Source: a virus. From it: a DNA stretch of 42,021 bases. This document shows positions 4,333 through 32,970 of the stretch, piece by piece. The stretch is from UHGV virus genome UHGV-0390817, one strand, 5' to 3'. Numbering within the stretch: position 1 is the first letter of the stretch; every line of letters begins with the position of its first letter. The notes under the pieces are model-generated. The model did no database searches and was not told where the DNA came from. It saw only the letters and a program-made list of their open reading frames with translations. The position numbers and the translations under genes are program-made.

Positions 4333-4547
4333 GAAAGAAAAGCAGTAAGCAGTCCAAGGTCAGCCGCATCGACCGCAGCAAGGCCCTGGCCGCCCAGGCG
4401 GACGAGGCAATCAAGGAGCGTATCCGAACGGCGCCAGCCTACATGTACACCAGCCTGTGCCCGGTTCCGGGACTGCGCAGGCTGCCGAAGGGAGTGATAC
4501 GGTACTATGAGACAATGCTACATAGACAACGGGCATCACGGGTGTGA
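4329..4547 (+). CDS. small basic hypothetical protein
   Basis: Internal ATG of the track ORF 4224..4547, coupled to the upstream small ORF. Confidence 0.4.
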   Translation: MRKKSSKQSKVSRIDRSKALAAQADEAIKERIRTAPAYMYTSLCPVPGLRRLPKGVIRYYETMLHRQRASRV

Positions 4548-4621
4548 TGGCCAGCGCAACAACAAGGGCAGGATACGGTACGGGTGCTGGGCGTGCCCGT
4601 ACCTGGATGCGGGAGGAGGTG

Positions 4622-5128
4622 ATGCCGGTGAAACAGACGGTAGCATTGGAGGAAGTGGCCAGGCTGGCCGCAAGGGAAGCCCTTAAGGAGCATGAGAAGC
4701 AACTCCGGAGGGAAAAGAGAATAAAGGTATTCCAGAACACCAAGAAGCTGATGGAGAATTATAACCGCATCTGTCAGAGCGTGGAGGAGGGAGTGGCAGA
4801 ACTGTCCGACATGGATAATGGCGATGAACTGGAGGAGTTCACAGAGGAAGATATCTTTATCAACAGTATCCTCAAGAGCAAGCTCCGGAGTATTGTCATG
4901 ATAGGACACATAGACAAGTGCTTGAGGCTCCTGGAGGATGAGGAGTGTCGGAAGAATACGCATGAGAAGTATCTGGCATTCAAGTATTTCTATCTGGATG
5001 GGATGACATACGAAAGTATTGCAGAGATTTACGGATATGGGGAGCGGACAGCCAGGCGGTGGATAACGGAACTTACGGGGATTCTTAGTGTATATCTCTT
5101 TGGGGCTGATGCCCTCATGCTGGATTAG
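4622..5128 (+). CDS. ArpU/RinA-like phage late transcriptional regulator with a sigma-70 region-4-like HTH
   Basis: The C-terminus YLDGMTYESIAEIYGYGERTARRWITEL is a region-4-type HTH. Its position, upstream of the packaging genes, is typical of ArpU-family activators in Firmicutes phages. The start is taken at the ATG after the RBS gggaggaggtg; the track ORF begins at 4544. Confidence 0.55.
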   Translation: MPVKQTVALEEVARLAAREALKEHEKQLRREKRIKVFQNTKKLMENYNRICQSVEEGVAELSDMDNGDELEEFTEEDIFINSILKSKLRSIVMIGHIDKCLRLLEDEECRKNTHEKYLAFKYFYLDGMTYESIAEIYGYGERTARRWITELTGILSVYLFGADALMLD

Positions 5129-5132
5129 ATAC

Positions 5133-5150
5133 TTGACAGGAGCGTGTCAA
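5133..5150. promoter_or_regulatory. palindrome TTGACA-N6-TGTCAA, followed by further TGTC repeats; a possible operator overlapping a promoter
   Basis: The sequence is read directly, and TGTCC, TTGTCA and TGTCC follow at 5156-5170. Confidence 0.35.
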
Positions 5151-5160
5151 AATCGTGTCC

Positions 5161-5189
5161 TTGTCATGTCCGTTTGGATGATTTATAAT
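5161..5189 (+). promoter_or_regulatory. sigma-A-like promoter: -35 TTGTCA, 17-bp spacer, -10 TATAAT
   Basis: Near-consensus hexamers with 17-bp spacing, just downstream of the late regulator gene. Confidence 0.4.
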
Positions 5190-5254
5190 TGTAATATGCA
5201 GAATTGGATGAAGCGGAAAGCTGATTGATTTTGCACCCTCCCCCACAAATAGCG

Positions 5255-5296
5255 GCTACCAGGCGTTACAGCCTGGTGGCTGATTAGCCGGTTTTT
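5255..5296 (+). terminator. putative intrinsic terminator after the late regulator gene
   Basis: A 10-bp stem GCTACCAGGC/GCCTGGTGGC with one G-U pair and a 6-nt loop. A small GGCT/AGCC hairpin and GGTTTTT follow. Confidence 0.4.
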
Positions 5297-5468
5297 GTGT
5301 AATCCCTCATAAGACAGGCCTGTACTTTAACGGGACAATGCCGCAGGGTATGCAAGCAGTGATGTATCTGGTTTTATCCCCCATGACGTTTTCCAGATAC
5401 GATTAGGGCATCCTAGAGATAGGGTGTCCTTTTATTATGAGTAGCTTATACTCATTAAATATTCTAAT

Positions 5469-5497
5469 TTGACAGAATCGAACATTTGTTCTATACT
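5469..5497 (+). promoter_or_regulatory. promoter of the accessory island: -35 TTGACA, 17-bp spacer, -10 TATACT
   Basis: Consensus -35, exact 17-bp spacer and a 5/6 match at -10. A second extended -10 TGaTATAAT lies at 5586-5594, just before the RBS gggggac and the ATG at 5626. Confidence 0.55.
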
Positions 5498-5625
5498 GTG
5501 GTTACGAAGAGAAGATGTGGATGTGTTTTTGTAAGATTTGTGGAATTGGGAGGGGGATATTTGTATATTCTTTCCATTCGGTGTGTGATATAATGTAAGA
5601 AAAACGTCGAATTGGGGGACATAAA

Positions 5626-7289: not shown

Positions 7290-7319
7290 GGGGCCACCTC
7301 CGGGCGGCTCTTTTTCTTT
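7290..7319 (+). terminator. putative intrinsic terminator closing the accessory operon
   Basis: A stem GGCCACC/GGCGGC(T)C with one A-C mismatch, followed by TTTTTCTTT. Confidence 0.4.
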
Positions 7320-7344
7320 ACCAAAACGATTGGAGGTGAGCCAG

Positions 7345-11060: not shown

Positions 11061-12537
11061 TGAGTATGATATAGGTGCTGCCTTCCAGGCCATAGAGGAT
11101 GAGCTTATAAAGTCTATGATACGGAACATGGACCGCCATCGCGCCGAGGAGACTAAGGAGGGTATTGAGTGGTCCATGTGGCAAACGGAACAGTTGAAGG
11201 CCCTGGAGAAGTATAAGAAGGATAACCAAAAGCGATACCGAAAGCAATTCCAGGACCTTAACAAGGAAATGGGTGAACTGATACGGATATCCAGGCAAAG
11301 AGGCAACATGCAGCAGGAAATCCAGATTCTGAATGCAATCCGCAAAGGATTTCCGGCCAGGAAAATCAACAAGGGAGCCACTGCAGAGTTCTTCCGGCTG
11401 AATGACCGTAAGCTGGAAGCGCTTATCAAGGCCACTACCAATGACATGGAGCGGGCTGAGACCGCAGTTCTCCGCATGGCTAACGACCAGTATCGGAAGG
11501 CCATTTTTAATGCCCAGGTATATGCCAATTCAGGCGCCGGTACCTATGAAAAAGCCGTGGATATGGCCACCAGGGATATGCTCTCACGGGGCCTTAACTG
11601 TGTGGAGTATGCCAATGGTGCCCGCCATACCCTATCAGATTATGCCGACATGGCCATCCGGACGGCCAGCAAGCGGGCGTATCTGCAAGGAGAAGGAGAG
11701 AAGCGTCAAGAATGGGGGATTACTACCGTGATTGTCAACAAGCGCGGGAACCCGTGTCCGAAGTGCCTGCCATTTGTCGGTAAGGTCCTGATTGACGACG
11801 TTTGGTCCGGCGGAAAGAAATCCGATGGGCCGTATCCTCTCATGAGTAAGGCCATTGCAGCCGGCCTGTACCATCCCAGATGTAAGGACAGCCACGCAAC
11901 ATACCTTCCTGGGATTTCCACAGCAGATGATACTTGGACGAGGGAGGAACTGGATGCCGTTGAACGGGCAAATCAGAAGGAGACAAAGCGGCAGTATGCA
12001 GAGCGTCAGGCTGAAAAGTTCAGGCGGCTGGTAGCTTATTCGCTGGACAAGGAAAATCAGGAACGGTATATGGCAAAGAGAGAAGAATGGGGAACTATTG
12101 CAAAAGATACAGAACCTGATATAATAAAGCCAATAGACACAGAAGAGGAAATACAGGTGCATCCAGTCGGAAAGATAGACAAAGAGGTATATAAGTGTAT
12201 TACGGAAGACATAGTCACAGACGAAGTTATTATAACAGATGAGCGTATCGGACATATTAAAGAACGCCATCCCAATGATTACGAAAAATACTGTGAGTAT
12301 TTGAAACTAATTGTGGAGGAACCGGACTATATTGTTGAAACAAAGAAACCCAACACAGCGTTAATCCTAAAAGAAATAAAGGAATCTAACGAACGGCAGT
12401 TTAAAACTGTGCTTAGATTGACAACATCAACGGATAATCCAGGATTTAAGAATTCCATCATAACATTTATGAAAATAGATGAAAAGGAATGGAATAGATT
12501 GCTTAGAAATAAGCTAATCCTTTACAAAAAGGAATAA
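11050..12537 (+). CDS. MuF-family (SPP1 gp7-like) minor head / head morphogenesis protein with an extra AT-rich C-terminal domain of about 150 aa that looks toxin- or nuclease-like
   Basis: Its position after the portal is typical. The central region containing GNPCPKCLPFVGKVLIDD is MuF-like. The C-terminal tail from about 12060 has a compositional shift and the motif ITDERIGHIKERHP. The start is a GTG; an alternative ATG lies at 11116. Confidence 0.7.
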   Translation: MRHNEYDIGAAFQAIEDELIKSMIRNMDRHRAEETKEGIEWSMWQTEQLKALEKYKKDNQKRYRKQFQDLNKEMGELIRISRQRGNMQQEIQILNAIRKGFPARKINKGATAEFFRLNDRKLEALIKATTNDMERAETAVLRMANDQYRKAIFNAQVYANSGAGTYEKAVDMATRDMLSRGLNCVEYANGARHTLSDYADMAIRTASKRAYLQGEGEKRQEWGITTVIVNKRGNPCPKCLPFVGKVLIDDVWSGGKKSDGPYPLMSKAIAAGLYHPRCKDSHATYLPGISTADDTWTREELDAVERANQKETKRQYAERQAEKFRRLVAYSLDKENQERYMAKREEWGTIAKDTEPDIIKPIDTEEEIQVHPVGKIDKEVYKCITEDIVTDEVIITDERIGHIKERHPNDYEKYCEYLKLIVEEPDYIVETKKPNTALILKEIKESNERQFKTVLRLTTSTDNPGFKNSIITFMKIDEKEWNRLLRNKLILYKKE

Positions 12538-12697
12538 AAATGATACAATGTGAGTAACATAAAAGAGAAGTTATCTGAGGTGGAAGATTTCGTACCCGTC
12601 CACACGCCGATGGTTTGACAGGGGAAACCCGAGAGATGCAGGAGCATGGTACGCCTGCCAGATAACTTCTTGATTATGTGAATTTATAGAATTTTAA

Positions 12698-12729
12698 TAC
12701 CACCAGTCAGTAATGGCTGGTGGTATTTT
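12698..12729 (+). terminator. strong rho-independent terminator after the MuF gene
   Basis: A perfect 9-bp stem TACCACCAG/CTGGTGGTA with a 10-nt loop, followed by TTTTATTT. Confidence 0.7.
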
Positions 12730-12733
12730 ATTT

Positions 12734-12749
12734 GTTGCGATATCGCAAC
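12734..12749. promoter_or_regulatory. perfect 16-bp palindrome GTTGCGATATCGCAAC (copy 1), 8 nt upstream of the RBS of gene 12764
   Basis: The sequence is read directly. An identical copy occurs at 27154-27169. Confidence 0.6.
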
Positions 12750-12763
12750 GGAAAGGAGCATAA

Positions 12764-13105
12764 ATGAAGTACAGGAAAAAACCAGTGGTAATTGAGGCAT
12801 TCCAGTGGACGGGAGGGCCGGAGCAGGAGGATGACCCTGAGTGGATTATCGAGGCAGTCAGGAATGGGAGTGCCTGGTTTGAAAACGAGGGAACCCCAGA
12901 AGTGAAATTCATGATTCGGACACTGGAAGGGGTACACGAAGCCAGTATCGGGGATTACATTATCCGTGGTATAGCTGGGGAGATATATCCATGTAAGCCG
13001 GATATCTTTCTTGCAACTTACGAGCCGGCAGTGACGAAAGTTTCCATGAATGTTACGGCACATCTGGATGAAGATGAAATCAAACATGAAACGGACGGGT
13101 TATAA
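12764..13105 (+). CDS. small acidic hypothetical protein; candidate immunity partner of the MuF C-terminal domain
   Basis: The RBS aaaggagc precedes the ATG. The gene sits between the MuF and scaffold genes, where structural modules are normally contiguous. 113 aa, rich in Glu and Asp. Confidence 0.5.
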   Translation: MKYRKKPVVIEAFQWTGGPEQEDDPEWIIEAVRNGSAWFENEGTPEVKFMIRTLEGVHEASIGDYIIRGIAGEIYPCKPDIFLATYEPAVTKVSMNVTAHLDEDEIKHETDGL

Positions 13106-15295: not shown

Positions 15296-15682
15296 ATGTC
15301 TTATGAACCCTATGTCACCTATGAGTACTACTGTGACGCATACAAGGGTAATGTAATCCCCATGGACGAGTTGGACAAGGCTCTTAAGCAGGCCAGCCGT
15401 CACATTGATTCCCTGACCTACAACCGCATTGTAGGTCGGGGATTTTCTAATCTGACGGCCTTTCAGCAGGAAACCATACAGGAAGTGGTCTGCCAGCAGG
15501 CGGACTTTGAGTATGAGAACACAGACGAGATAAACACCATCCTGCAGAGCTACAGCATCAATGGTGTGTCGGCACAGTTCGGCAGCAGCTGGAATGTATT
15601 TACAGACAAGGGTGTAGCCATGAAGCGCGATGTGTACGCCCTGCTGTCCCAGACGGGTCTGTGCTGCCGGTTAGCGAGGTGA
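15296..15682 (+). CDS. head-tail connector / adaptor (gp6 or gp15-like)
   Basis: 128 aa. Its position and size fit the Phage_connect_1 family. Confidence 0.5.
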   Translation: MSYEPYVTYEYYCDAYKGNVIPMDELDKALKQASRHIDSLTYNRIVGRGFSNLTAFQQETIQEVVCQQADFEYENTDEINTILQSYSINGVSAQFGSSWNVFTDKGVAMKRDVYALLSQTGLCCRLAR

Positions 15683-26659: not shown

Positions 26660-27109
26660 ATGAAGATGGATAAGGTGAAAGCAGCGTTTGTTGCAGCATT
26701 TAGCATGATTTTTGGGTGGCTGGGAATTCTGGCAGTTCCAGTGTTGATACTGGCCGGATTGAATTTCACAGACTACATAACCGGCATCCTGGCATCAAAA
26801 CGGCGCAATGAGCTGGTGACCAGTGACAAGGGACTGTGGGGCATCGTCAAGAAGATAGGTATGTGGATATTGGTAGGTTTAGGATGGGCTATGGACGTGC
26901 TGATTAATTACGCCAGCCAGTATGTAGGACTGTCTATTAAACTGCCCTTCGTGGTTGCTACCATCGTGGCCGTGTGGCTAATATGTAATGAGATTATTTC
27001 TATCCTGGAGAATCTGCTGGATATCGGTGTGGCCATGCCACCGTTTTTAATGCCGCTGGCCAAGATGATTAAGGGTCAAGTGGAGGATAAGACAAAAATG
27101 GATGCCTGA
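26660..27109 (+). CDS. holin (TcdE/phage_holin_4_1-like)
   Basis: 149 aa with three hydrophobic TM segments and a charged C-terminus, directly upstream of the endolysin gene. Confidence 0.8.
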   Translation: MKMDKVKAAFVAAFSMIFGWLGILAVPVLILAGLNFTDYITGILASKRRNELVTSDKGLWGIVKKIGMWILVGLGWAMDVLINYASQYVGLSIKLPFVVATIVAVWLICNEIISILENLLDIGVAMPPFLMPLAKMIKGQVEDKTKMDA

Positions 27110-27153
27110 GAGAAGGTGGTCCGTATATCTCCCGGTCACGGGGTTAAGCGGGT

Positions 27154-27183
27154 GTTGCGATATCGCAACTTGTGACGTCACAA
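27154..27183. promoter_or_regulatory. copy 2 of the 16-bp palindrome GTTGCGATATCGCAAC, immediately followed by a related 14-bp palindrome TTGTGACGTCACAA
   Basis: Read directly. The two share the pattern TTGyGA-yr-TCrCAA. Confidence 0.6.
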
Positions 27184-27191
27184 CTTTTCAT

Positions 27192-27222
27192 GGCCTGGGA
27201 GTGGTCCCGGGCCTTATTTTTT
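27192..27222 (+). terminator. strong intrinsic terminator between the holin and endolysin genes, ending 5 nt before the endolysin RBS
   Basis: A 9-bp stem GGCCTGGGA/TCCCGGGCC with one G-U pair and the loop GTGG, followed by TTATTTTTT. Confidence 0.6.
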
Positions 27223-27239
27223 AATTGGAGGAAAACACT

Positions 27240-28013
27240 ATGAGTAAAACATCAGCAGGATTAATACAGCACTGTAAGGGTAAACTGGGAACTCCCTATG
27301 TCTACGGCGCCAAAGGCGAGGTCCTTACCCCGACCATCCTGGACAGGCTCGCCCGGGAGAACCCAGGCACATACACATCCGCCTACAAGGCCAAGGCGGC
27401 CAGGTACATAGGCCAGCGCTGCACGGACTGTTCTGGCCTCATCAGCTGGTACACCGGACGTATCCGCGGCAGCTATAACTACCATGACACAGCCGTGGAG
27501 CGGGTAGATATCGACCACCTGAATGAGTCCATGACCGGCTGGGCGCTCTGGAAGCCGGGGCATATCGGGGTATACATAGGTGATGGATACTGCATTGAGG
27601 CCAAGGGCATCAATTACGGGACCATCAAGTCCAGAGTGGCGGTCACACCCTGGCAGAAGGTCCTAAAGCTCTGCGACATCGACTATACCCCGGTCCCAGT
27701 GACATACACCCAGGGCTTCCAGTCGGCCGCAGACGGCCAGCGCTGGTGGTATCAGTTTACAGACGGCAGCTATGCGGCCAATGGCTGGTACTGGCTCCGG
27801 GAGGCCACGGACGGTACCTGCGGCTGGTATCTGTTTGACAGCGAGGGCTATATGCTGACCGGCTACCAGGTGGACCCTGCTGGTGAGGCCTTCCTGCTCT
27901 GTCCAGTCAAGGGGTCTGACGAGGGGAAGTGCATGATTACGGATGCCAGAGGAGCTCTCCGGATTGCGGAGGAGTACGACATGGTAAATCGACGGTACGT
28001 GTTTAATTGGTAG
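27240..28013 (+). CDS. endolysin: N-terminal NlpC/P60 (C40) peptidase plus C-terminal CW_binding_1-type cell-wall-binding repeats
   Basis: The catalytic Cys motif CTDCSGLISWY and the His motif GHIGVYIGDGY are present. C-terminal repeats ANGWYWL and GWYLFDSEGYMLTG follow. The RBS ggagga precedes the ATG at 27240. Confidence 0.85.
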   Translation: MSKTSAGLIQHCKGKLGTPYVYGAKGEVLTPTILDRLARENPGTYTSAYKAKAARYIGQRCTDCSGLISWYTGRIRGSYNYHDTAVERVDIDHLNESMTGWALWKPGHIGVYIGDGYCIEAKGINYGTIKSRVAVTPWQKVLKLCDIDYTPVPVTYTQGFQSAADGQRWWYQFTDGSYAANGWYWLREATDGTCGWYLFDSEGYMLTGYQVDPAGEAFLLCPVKGSDEGKCMITDARGALRIAEEYDMVNRRYVFNW

Positions 28014-28022
28014 ATTACCGAA

Positions 28023-28041
28023 GGGCGCTGCAATAGCGCCC
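28023..28041. terminator. hairpin GGGCGCT-gcaat-AGCGCCC between the convergent endolysin and Spo0A_C genes; a possible bidirectional terminator
   Basis: A perfect 7-bp GC-rich stem. The flanking T-runs are weak. Confidence 0.35.
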
Positions 28042-28049
28042 TGACTTCC

Positions 28050-28391
28050 TCAATCATAATAATGGAGTACAACATAATGAGCCAGCGCATCAATAAAGGC
28101 GCCGTTCCGCGGCTTTTGTGCCAACTCAAAGCCGAAAACCTGGTTTAAAAGATTCCGGTCTCCATGGAGCCAAATAGTATTAATGATGGTGCGTATATTG
28201 CGTTCTACACATCCCACAGATGTTTGGTAGCGGGCGGCAATTTCTACGTATAGCCCTTTGGATATGTAGGTAAGCAGTTCTGGGTTCGCAATAGCGCGGA
28301 TTACACCATAAATAGTATAGCGGAATCCTACGTAGGAATTATTGACGCCAAGCCGTCGAAGCAAGTTACTGGTTTCTCTTTCGTATTTCAT
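28050..28391 (-). CDS. stand-alone Spo0A C-terminal (DNA-binding, Spo0A_C) domain protein with no receiver domain
   Basis: The 113-aa product LLRRLGVNNSYVGFRYTIYGVIRAIANPELLTYISKGLYVEIAARYQTSVGCVERNIRTIINTIWLHGDRNLLNQVFG...KPRNGAFIDA aligns motif-by-motif with the B. subtilis Spo0A effector domain (GVPAHIKGY...ELLGSITK.LYPDIAKK..TTASRVERAIRHAIEVAW..G...FG...KP.N.EFIA). A strong RBS ggaggg precedes the ATG at 28391; the track ORF extends further upstream without an RBS. Confidence 0.75.
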   Translation of the reverse strand: MKYERETSNLLRRLGVNNSYVGFRYTIYGVIRAIANPELLTYISKGLYVEIAARYQTSVGCVERNIRTIINTIWLHGDRNLLNQVFGFELAQKPRNGAFIDALAHYVVLHYYD

Positions 28392-28615
28392 GCTAGCCCT
28401 CCTAAAATTTTTTACATTATAAAAGTAACTATTAGGAGGGGGACTATCAAGGGAAGGGGGACAACAAAAAGTTACAAAAGGTATCATAAAATGCGGGAAG
28501 ATAAATGGGGAATGATTCTTTTGGGGTAGGCCGGCATACATAGGGTCTGGTTCAGATAGATTTCCAAAAAAACATACTGACATTGCCTTAATGCCATGCT
28601 ATAATAAAACCAGAA

Positions 28616-30153: not shown

Positions 30154-30376
30154 TATATCATCTCCTGTTCCTATCATGTATATGAGTTTAGGGGATGTTT
30201 CAATTCTCATTTCGGTCCATATTATAACCCATATTACAGCCTGTAAGATTTTGGTGAGCTTTGAAAAAAGGGTATAAAAAATACGCCCCTTGCCAGGACG
30301 CTCCAGGAATGATATAATTTACTTGCTTAGGGTAATTATATCTTCCAGGCGTACCTGGTAAGAGAAAATCTATGTG

Positions 30377-30409
30377 AAAAGCTTCTGTGTTCCCGCACAG
30401 GGGCTTTTT
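30377..30409. terminator. bidirectional intrinsic terminator (A-tract, 13-bp stem, T-tract)
   Basis: AAAAGCTTCTGTG-ttcccg-CACAGGGGCTTTTT. It lies immediately downstream of the minus-strand gene 30419..31099. Confidence 0.6.
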
Positions 30410-30418
30410 GCTTACTAT

Positions 30419-31930: not shown

Positions 31931-32641
31931 TTACAATGACTGTGCTCTCAAAGAACCCAGAATTATTCTCGTTGGTGACAGCAAATCATTAAATGGATAT
32001 GGTTCCTGGCTGGCCTTAGCATCGCATATAGGACAGATACAATCACCAGGTCGGTTATAAAAAGTCCGTCCACAGTAGAAACATTCGGTCTCAGCACAAA
32101 TAAACCTTTTAGACTTGGTTTTATAAAAGTAGCTATACATCGCCCAATCAACTGGATACATTTTGTGTGTGGCTCTGCTATACCATCTACGGTAAGCGGC
32201 AAAGGCATTATGAGCAGCTTCGTCCGACAATCCGAAATGTCTATGCACATCCCAAGCACTTTCGCAATGGCAGTAATGGATTACCATACTGGGAGCTAAT
32301 ACGTAGCTTGCAAAACAATTGGCTTCTTTCTCATAATAGTCCGCTTTGTAAGGATGCTCAAGCACTATATGACCCAGCTCATGGGCCAGTGAGAAGATAA
32401 TTCTATCTGATGGTTTATCTTCATTGTAAGCAACTGTCCGGCTAAATGGCTCAGTATATGCCTCGTCAGAACAGGAGGCACATAGTTCATATACTTCTGG
32501 ATTCTTTTCTTTCAATTCGCTGTATGTATAGACGTGATATCCATACTTTCTAATAGCTGAAATACAGTCAAATGGAAATTTCTTAAATTCACAAAAGGTA
32601 TATGTTTCTAGTACTTTTTTCAGTATAAAATCGTGATTCAA
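31931..32641 (-). CDS. ImmA/IrrE-family metalloprotease (anti-repressor protease)
   Basis: The HEXXH motif HELGHIVLEH is present. The gene lies directly downstream of, and on the same strand as, the XRE repressor, a classic ImmR-ImmA arrangement. Confidence 0.8.
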   Translation of the reverse strand: MNHDFILKKVLETYTFCEFKKFPFDCISAIRKYGYHVYTYSELKEKNPEVYELCASCSDEAYTEPFSRTVAYNEDKPSDRIIFSLAHELGHIVLEHPYKADYYEKEANCFASYVLAPSMVIHYCHCESAWDVHRHFGLSDEAAHNAFAAYRRWYSRATHKMYPVDWAMYSYFYKTKSKRFICAETECFYCGRTFYNRPGDCICPICDAKASQEPYPFNDLLSPTRIILGSLRAQSL

Positions 32642-32646
32642 TCAAA

Positions 32647-32970
32647 TCAGTCCTCATTATTTATTTCGGACAGTAGTTTGATTAGACGCATTTTCTGTTC
32701 AACAGACATCTGCTTACCATTTCTGGCCACAAGGCGTTCCACATCCGCATAAGTGGGTTCTGGAACCACCTTCTTTTCTCTATCGTCGAAGTCATCAAGC
32801 GACAACCCAAGAACATGAGCGATAGATTTAAGCGTTTCAAGTTTTGGGTCTTTTGTGGCACCGCTTAATATCTTATTCAACGTTCCCAGAGGGACTCCAG
32901 ATTTTTCAGATAATTCCTCCGTGGTTAATCCTAACTTTTTTTTGTATTCTGCAATTTTCTCCAGTCCCAT
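32647..32970 (-). CDS. XRE-family HTH repressor (cI / ImmR-like)
   Basis: HTH LTTEELSEKSGVPLGTLNKILSG. Transcribed divergently from a Cro-like gene across an operator-rich intergenic region. Confidence 0.85.
   Translation of the reverse strand: MGLEKIAEYKKKLGLTTEELSEKSGVPLGTLNKILSGATKDPKLETLKSIAHVLGLSLDDFDDREKKVVPEPTYADVERLVARNGKQMSVEQKMRLIKLLSEINNED

Follow-up and report, generated by a model that had tools for sequence, protein, structure and literature searches.

The phage analysed here is an Enterocloster-type prophage, represented by a stretch of 42,021 nucleotides from the virus genome UHGV-0390817 (hereafter the window), for which blastn against cultured phages returned no DNA match. 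Its lysis region holds a holin-endolysin cassette, in which a holin gene adjoins a peptidoglycan hydrolase gene on the same strand. The holin (26660-27109, + strand, 149 aa), encoded by the last gene before the leader described below, matches the Pfam family Phage_holin_4_1 (PF05105, 3e-25), as well as TIGR01593 and the phrog_199 holins. The evidence for the identity of the next gene (27240-28013, + strand, 257 aa) is weaker than for the holin: its product is probably an endolysin, with a match to phrog_7854 ('endolysin', 2.5e-8) and about 40% identity to proteins that bear a lysin annotation in Enterocloster bolteae phages, and it carries an NlpC/P60-like N-terminus (PF00877, a weak match below the Pfam cut-off) and choline-binding-type repeats (PF19127, also weak). 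These family matches agree with the original prediction, which had placed a terminator between a holin upstream and an endolysin downstream.

Beyond the endolysin stop codon, a hairpin at 28022-28042 (AAGGGCGCUGCAAUAGCGCCCU) lies in a 61-nt region that folds at -19.6 kcal/mol and has a U-tract on neither strand, so that the late operon ends without a canonical terminator, though one precedes its last gene. Convergent with the endolysin gene is a gene (28050-28583, - strand) for a 177-aa protein that contains the Spo0A C-terminal DNA-binding domain (PF08769, 1.4e-28) and lacks the receiver domain. It is present in a minority of related phages, and may reflect a manipulation of host sporulation by the phage.

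The holin and endolysin genes are separated by a hairpin (27192-27213, + strand) made of the arms GGCCTGGGA and TCCCGGGCC around a gtgg loop, and prolonged by the U-tract TTATTTTTT (27214-27222, + strand), a T-rich tail that is common to its variants. Sequence and fold both confirm this placement. The stem comprises nine pairs (seven G-C, one A-U and one G.U), and the tail eight T residues interrupted by a single A: the counts of a 9-bp stem and eight T announced earlier were right, with the corrections that one stem pair is a wobble and that the T-run is broken. In a 41-nt fold, the hairpin reaches -19.2 kcal/mol (z = -3.63), an energy matched by none of 200 dinucleotide shuffles. When every hairpin followed by a T-run was scored on both strands of the whole 42-kb window with a d'Aubenton-Carafa-type score, it came first, with a score of 33.3, the runner-up (30.4) being located at 12698-12725. 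A G+C-rich stem-loop, a U-rich tract directly 3' of it and a structure kept in relatives are the marks of an intrinsic terminator, and a functional Rho-independent terminator is the best explanation for this combination, termination in vivo being deduced from these features. The adjective 'strong' used in the original prediction is borne out by the first rank in the window and by the fold.

The T-run is separated by only 4 nt (AATT) from the endolysin Shine-Dalgarno sequence (SD, GGAGG, 27227-27231, + strand, part of a TTGGAGG that is conserved in the leaders), and the ATG follows at 27240-27242. No sigma-70-like promoter was found on the + strand from 27110 to 27240, that is from the holin stop codon to the endolysin ATG, and a manual reading of the leader and of the terminator region likewise gave none. 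As no promoter fits into the 4-nt gap and none is detectable, the endolysin must be transcribed by read-through past the terminator. Both the lack of space for a promoter and the resulting dependence on read-through had been anticipated, and the anatomy upholds them.

Upstream of the terminator, the leader contains up to two kinds of conserved elements. The first is an optional 5' element of 39 nt (27115-27153, + strand), of the form GGTGGTCC...CTCCC...GGGGTTAAGCGGGT, which is conserved in a subset of loci: it was found after at least five different upstream gene ends (16 distinct leaders), and many lysin loci do not have it. It is predicted to fold into a small hairpin around a conserved GGGGUUAAG (helix columns 37-40/49-52), with two compensatory pairs. 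RNAalifold also pairs its CUCC with the lysin SD (GGAG), a predicted pairing that is invariant and so shows no covariation. The second kind consists of palindromes, present in one to three copies per leader in related loci. In the window, dyad P is a perfect 16-bp palindrome, GTTGCGATATCGCAAC (27154-27169, no strand assigned), near-invariant in related loci; it shares one base with dyad 2, cTTGTGACGTCACAAc (27169-27184, no strand assigned), whose 14-bp core is a perfect palindrome. Both belong to the same GTTGY-N6-RCAAC family, in which the variants GTTGTAATATTACAAC and GTTGTGACGTCACAAC retain the symmetry, and in which GCGATATCGC, GTAATATTAC and GCACCGGTAC represent specificity variants.

The question arises as to how general this arrangement is. 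We compared 72 viral loci with homologues of the endolysin and 80 with homologues of the holin. The hairpin, the T-run and (T)TGGAGG precede the lysin start in all but about 7 of the 72 lysin-homologue loci, and the combination of hairpin, T-tract and SD recurs in more than 60 related phage loci. About 5 to 7 lysin homologues of the 72 loci do without the element, which indicates that it is dispensable for lysin expression and would be an optional regulatory module. The gene upstream of the leader varies, with at least six unrelated C-termini among the 72 lysin loci. The lysin varies as well: the leader precedes lysins of differing catalytic domain, NlpC/P60-like in the window, CHAP, Amidase_2 (two lineages) and Peptidase_M15_4/VanY elsewhere, and is also found before further proteins with choline-binding repeats. 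The element is thus tied, as judged from these homologues, to endolysins rather than to one gene family.

An alignment of 16 distinct full-length leaders was submitted to RNAalifold, which recovered the terminator hairpin. Its helix is 99.3% paired in the 16 leaders (1 unpaired cell of 144), with exchanges between GC and AU at two pairs, in 5 and 7 sequences, and between CG and UG at two more. As a control, the 3' partner was slid by 1 to 3 columns, which lowered the paired fraction of the predicted leader structure as a whole (30 pairs) to 38 to 49%. All wobbles of the terminator helix are G.U on the + strand and would be A.C mismatches on the - strand; as they fit the + strand only, the hairpin is an RNA element of the lysin-sense transcript. 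In a wider harvest of 33 distinct hairpin variants, the first nine bases downstream included six T or more in 31, the T-tract ranging from 4 to 12 T across loci. In a few loci (for example L153 and L166), the hairpin is kept despite a weak T-tract, a hint that it may have a role beyond termination. Rfam scans, of the window at the gathering threshold and of 26900-27400 at E ≤ 10, gave no leader family, and noise only.

Relatives of the holin outside this clade place the arrangement in perspective. In 19 loci that form a sister group, with a holin of 72% identity, the same position, directly before the SD of a GH24 lysozyme, is occupied by a hairpin that is not homologous to the present one (AGGCTTAGG around atat and CCTAAGCCT, followed by TTTTTT). 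An unrelated hairpin at the same spot suggests that the function, beyond the sequence, is under selection. Among distant holin relatives (about 54% identity), no more than a few bases part the holin stop codon from the lysin start, and in the cultured Enterocloster phage PMBT24 the lysin begins 18 nt past the preceding gene, a gap too short for such a leader. The abutting gene pair of these outer relatives supports the claim made beforehand that the locus departs from the usual co-transcribed holin-lysin cassette.

It had also been proposed that regulation might involve the adjacent palindromes or alternative structures of the leader. Neither suggestion survived in its RNA form. The folding check revealed no competing antiterminator fold: blocking the 3' arm of the terminator costs 10 to 17 kcal/mol, by which the terminator is favoured, and the substitute partner is inconsistent across the 16 homologues. 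No described aptamer or leader family was recognised, Rfam giving no match in the leader at the gathering threshold and noise at E values up to 10. An open reading frame that spans the leader (27102-27224) was rejected as a leader peptide, as it lacks a conserved start, an SD and any family match; the dyads are invariant at every one of its codon positions. As for the palindromes, their common forms are symmetric through the centre (ATAT, ACGT, CCGG), a property that an RNA loop does not need. Moreover, their rare mismatches show no G.U bias (3 A.C cells versus 2 G.U cells in the 16-leader alignment), in which they differ from the terminator helix. For these two reasons, both of them indirect, the GTTGY-N6-RCAAC dyads look like DNA-level sites, and it is unlikely that they act as RNA partners of the hairpin.

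The 16-mer of dyad P has a second exact copy in the window (12734-12749, no strand assigned), 6 nt downstream of the second-best terminator (12696-12727, + strand) and abutting the SD of the gene that starts with the ATG at 12764; the dyad sites number three per genome. This gene belongs to phrog_419, and the SD follows the dyad. Dyad P thus lies upstream of the lysin terminator and downstream of the 12696-12727 terminator, and as it is on opposite sides of the two, no single simple geometry covers both. The 16-mer is found unchanged in more than 119 IMG/VR stretches, usually adjoining a terminator and an SD, and repeatedly in Enterocloster, Hungatella and Lacrimispora genomes. Matches in unrelated phyla fit chance, the estimate being about 140 matches in 596 Gb. 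Two contexts dominate. The first is the lysin leader, and the second consists of a conserved hairpin with its T-run, the dyad, and then the SD and ATG, placed before integrases of several kinds, a head-region gene and others. Dyads and terminators thus travel together, in either order. The occurrence of the 16-mer downstream of other terminators and directly before integrase and head-region SDs implies that it is not lysis-specific.

In Lachnospiraceae prophages (loci L153-L271 and L272-L391, for example L177, L228, L276, L283 and L343), we observed the second context as a recurrent composite module, in which a hairpin of the form ATACCACCnG...CnGGTGGTAT, or GCGTCCTGGCAAGGGGCGT, and its T-run are followed by GTTGCGATATCGCAAC, then by the SD and ATG. 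It precedes tyrosine- and serine-type integrases, the MKYRKKPVVIEA... gene and genes for small membrane proteins.

The lysin terminator is not special within this phage. A terminator at 7291-7310 (+ strand, retrieved by the score scan) lies about 20 nt upstream of the SD of terS, which starts at 7330, and the head module is located behind the 12696-12727 terminator, no promoter intervening. The + strand terminators at 7291, 12698 and 27192 are each at most about 40 nt before an SD, without any promoter in between, and the two best terminators of the window each adjoin dyad P. Among terS homologues (58 to 98% identity; L393-L472), a hairpin with a T-run that scores above 0 was found upstream in 25 of 42 distinct contexts, the hairpin sequences being mutually unrelated.

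Several further regulatory sites were recorded in the window. A skipping-rope RNA (Rfam RF02924, 48.2 bits), the sole Rfam match of the window, lies at 12570-12666, within the structural operon, where a 495-aa gene (end at 12537) flanks it on one side and the scaffold and head genes on the other. A sigma-70-like promoter (TTTACA-17-TACAAT, 12521-12549) precedes this RNA, which is closed by its own strong terminator, at 12696-12727. Upstream of the late region, a 500-bp non-coding stretch (5129-5625) contains several strong sigma-70-like promoters, at 5161-5189, at 5469-5497 and, in the form of an extended -10, near 5583. With the two hairpins at 5277-5290 and 5405-5430, which resemble terminators, this stretch could be a promoter-leader-terminator control region for the late genes. 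Beside the serine integrase, a small-RNA-like gene without Rfam match (30283-30411) has a near-consensus promoter with a TG (TTGCCA-17-TATAAT, 30290-30318, + strand) and, some 55 nt further on, a terminator of 17 pairs (30374-30411). Other loci have this promoter sequence next to their integrase genes too, and its -35 region, read on the opposite strand, yields a hairpin with a T-run that lies upstream of the integrase. Another hairpin, of 14 pairs and with TTTTCT behind it (score 16), was noted at 15410-15442, inside an open reading frame of the head-tail region (15296-15682).

How could polymerase reach the endolysin gene? We picture the lysin leader as a non-coding unit devoid of its own promoter, in which the 5' element, where present, is followed by one to three dyads, then by a hairpin of the GGCC type with its U-tract, and finally by the SD. 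The endolysin would be transcribed only by polymerase that arrives from the holin and the late operon and passes the terminator. In the most economical mechanism, late transcription complexes would have been made terminator-resistant, by processive antitermination, so that the lysin terminator would act as a last gate, at which unmodified polymerase, stray or belonging to the prophage state, would halt before the endolysin. A candidate dimeric protein would bind the dyads as DNA sites and act at or near the terminators. We were led to processive antitermination because terS and the head genes, which are essential and highly expressed, also sit behind strong terminators. We infer both the antitermination and the protein binding to the dyads, and have even confidence in the reading as a whole, namely a terminator gate passed by terminator-resistant late transcription, with dyads bound by a putative dimeric protein. 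That the terminator controls the timing of lysis, as was first suggested, is speculation.

Several candidates for the antiterminator, and for the function or the ligand of the dyads, were considered. Pfam, PHROG and NCBIfam scans of about 30 open reading frames revealed no Q, N, AlpA or NusG-like family, and only generic HTH proteins. One frame (4544-5128), considered as a sigma factor or antiterminator, has only sub-threshold similarity to sigma-70 region 4 and to HTH domains, its homologues being annotated 'HTH domain protein' or 'YjcR'. The Spo0A_C-like protein encoded at 28050-28583 was set aside as a dyad binder, since its gene co-occurs in just 8 of the 55 lysin loci with enough downstream sequence. 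The dyads were dismissed as late promoters, the next start codon lying only 14 to 25 nt away at sites where dyad P adjoins an SD, and no dyad being present before terS. ImmR/ImmA-type immunity operators were discarded as well, because the immunity region (31931-32970), which encodes an HTH_3 repressor and an ImmA-like M78 peptidase, has no copy: within 30-35 kb, which includes this region and the early promoters, no dyad was found with at most one mismatch, and the palindromes there differ.

The fact that the scanned frames contain no recognisable antiterminator, and the leader no cis switch, leaves room for a rival explanation. The hairpin may be a constitutive partial terminator, or attenuator, that lets through a fixed fraction of polymerases with no regulated step, and that also serves as a 3'-end stabiliser. 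It would set a low ratio of endolysin to holin mRNA, and shield the long upstream late mRNA from 3' exonucleases. A variation of the T-tract from 4 to 12 T is what tuning of efficiency would produce, a 9-bp hairpin with UUAUUUUUU could be simply leaky, some relatives do not need the element for their lysin, and the true operon end, after the lysin, has a hairpin without a U-tract. However, a fixed attenuator does not account for the near-invariant dyads beside the hairpin and at the other top terminator, and the position of terS and of the head genes behind strong terminators is hard to square with passive leakage alone. We therefore treat this explanation as a serious competitor, and a doubtful one.

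A broader form of our reading extends beyond lysis. The dyads, together with the GGCC-type and ACCACC-type terminators, might constitute a gating system dependent on a trans-acting factor in temperate phages of Lachnospiraceae. If so, a dimeric protein that binds the DNA or the hairpin would toggle termination before endolysin, head-module and integrase genes, and would represent a new class of antiterminator or a 'symmetric stoperator', timing lysis at the level of transcription. This generalisation is tentative, and we consider it rather unlikely as it stands.

The same dyads can also be read as repressor-type operators that block elongating polymerase in the manner of stoperators. Together with the adjacent terminators, they would silence the lysin, head and integrase genes in the lysogen. 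Many phages indeed have such dyads, which look like symmetric DNA-level sites, in the short gaps between genes, immediately 5' of a gene start, and the concept is established for the repressors of L5-type mycobacteriophages (PMC9283540). A repressor of this type would nevertheless be expected to have a site in the immunity or early-promoter region, where no dyad copy exists; the sites are only three per genome, and symmetric instead of oriented; and the neighbouring Spo0A_C-like gene accompanies too few of the loci (8 of 55). Such a lock on the prophage state strikes us as quite improbable.

The combinatorial shuffling seen around the leader, with at least six upstream genes and at least five lysin types, and the fact that the dyads are better conserved than the flanking coding sequence, could also mean that the leader is kept as a patch of homology for the exchange of holin and lysin modules, the terminator being a by-product. 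The covariation of the hairpin and the retention of the T-tract, however, indicate selection on RNA structure, and since the sister clade has a terminator without homology in this very place, it is the function, and not the sequence, that would be selected; we find this hypothesis very improbable. Finally, a riboswitch-like element or leader-peptide attenuator that toggles the terminator on a signal is barely credible, in spite of a 130-nt leader with several hairpins and of the 27102-27224 frame across it, as no fold competes with the terminator, the alternative partners vary between homologues, Rfam gives no match, the 5' element is absent from many loci, and the frame has no conserved start, SD or family.

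The timing of lysis in tailed phages is normally ascribed to holin triggering, holin and endolysin being co-transcribed. Many Lachnospiraceae prophages of the human gut, which make up a large group, instead have conserved dyads and a strong, equally conserved terminator between the two genes, whatever the type of endolysin. If read-through is regulated, the supply of endolysin would form a second, transcriptional checkpoint of lysis, and the dyads would point to a regulator whose reach includes head and integrase genes. The lysin leader is compact, widespread and absent from Rfam, and offers a testable handle on late-gene control in the phages of little-known hosts. For the engineering of these bacteria, it would serve as a terminator or insulator part that can be moved between constructs.

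The logic of a gate before lysis genes has precedents. In phage lambda, the lysis genes S-R-Rz are preceded by the pR'-tR' region, with Q antitermination. A DNA site serves for the loading of Q, the terminator is some 200 nt from the promoter and precedes the whole lysis cassette, and the Q-modified polymerase also ignores later terminators. The present locus shares with tR'/Q an intrinsic terminator placed before lysis genes, which under our reading would be passed only by modified polymerase. It differs from lambda in that the terminator splits the holin from the endolysin, in that there is no nearby promoter, and in that no Q-like gene was found among the scanned open reading frames. In mycobacteriophage Ms6, the leader of the lysis cassette reportedly contains an intrinsic terminator between the promoter and the first lysis gene, and antitermination is said to have been proposed. 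Ms6 resembles our phage in having a terminator ahead of lysis genes and a Gram-positive-type host; here, by contrast, the terminator is located between holin and endolysin, and not between a promoter and the first lysis gene.

Three other systems are comparable in part. A prophage ncRNA of C. difficile, RCd22, is situated between a holin gene and abiF, has its own promoter, belongs to an Rfam family (the abiF motif) and controls a toxin (PMC12373285). In both cases, a prophage holin gene is directly followed by a structured leader that contains a terminator, the next gene being reached via read-through, but the lysin leader has no sequence or Rfam similarity to RCd22, has no promoter of its own, and precedes an endolysin. 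In Pseudomonas aeruginosa, AlpA brings about expression of the alpBCDE lysis genes by bypass of intrinsic terminators, from a specific DNA site that is located inside the promoter, between the -35 and -10 elements (PMC7969949); as in lambda, the whole cassette lies behind the terminator. The logic is alike, with a lysis gene behind an intrinsic terminator, and the dyads are DNA-level candidates just as the AlpA site is DNA. Unlike that site, the dyads have no promoter in their vicinity; the scanned open reading frames include no recognisable AlpA homologue, and the AlpA host is Gram-negative. The stoperators of L5-type phages are protein-binding sites in the short intergenic spaces of late operons, which act on elongating polymerase; they are asymmetric, orientation-dependent 13-mers, of which a genome has more than 20, and their sequence is also that of the operator at the early promoter (PMC9283540). 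The dyads resemble them as short conserved sites in short intergenic spaces of lytic operons (12734 and 27154/27169), and depart from them as symmetric 16-mers that number three per genome and are absent from the immunity region. A literature search retrieved nothing relevant on the dyad sequences, nor on terminators that separate a holin from an endolysin gene. We therefore regard the locus as a variation on these known systems, in which the terminator gate lies inside the cassette, parting holin from endolysin, and is accompanied by a previously undescribed family of dyads.
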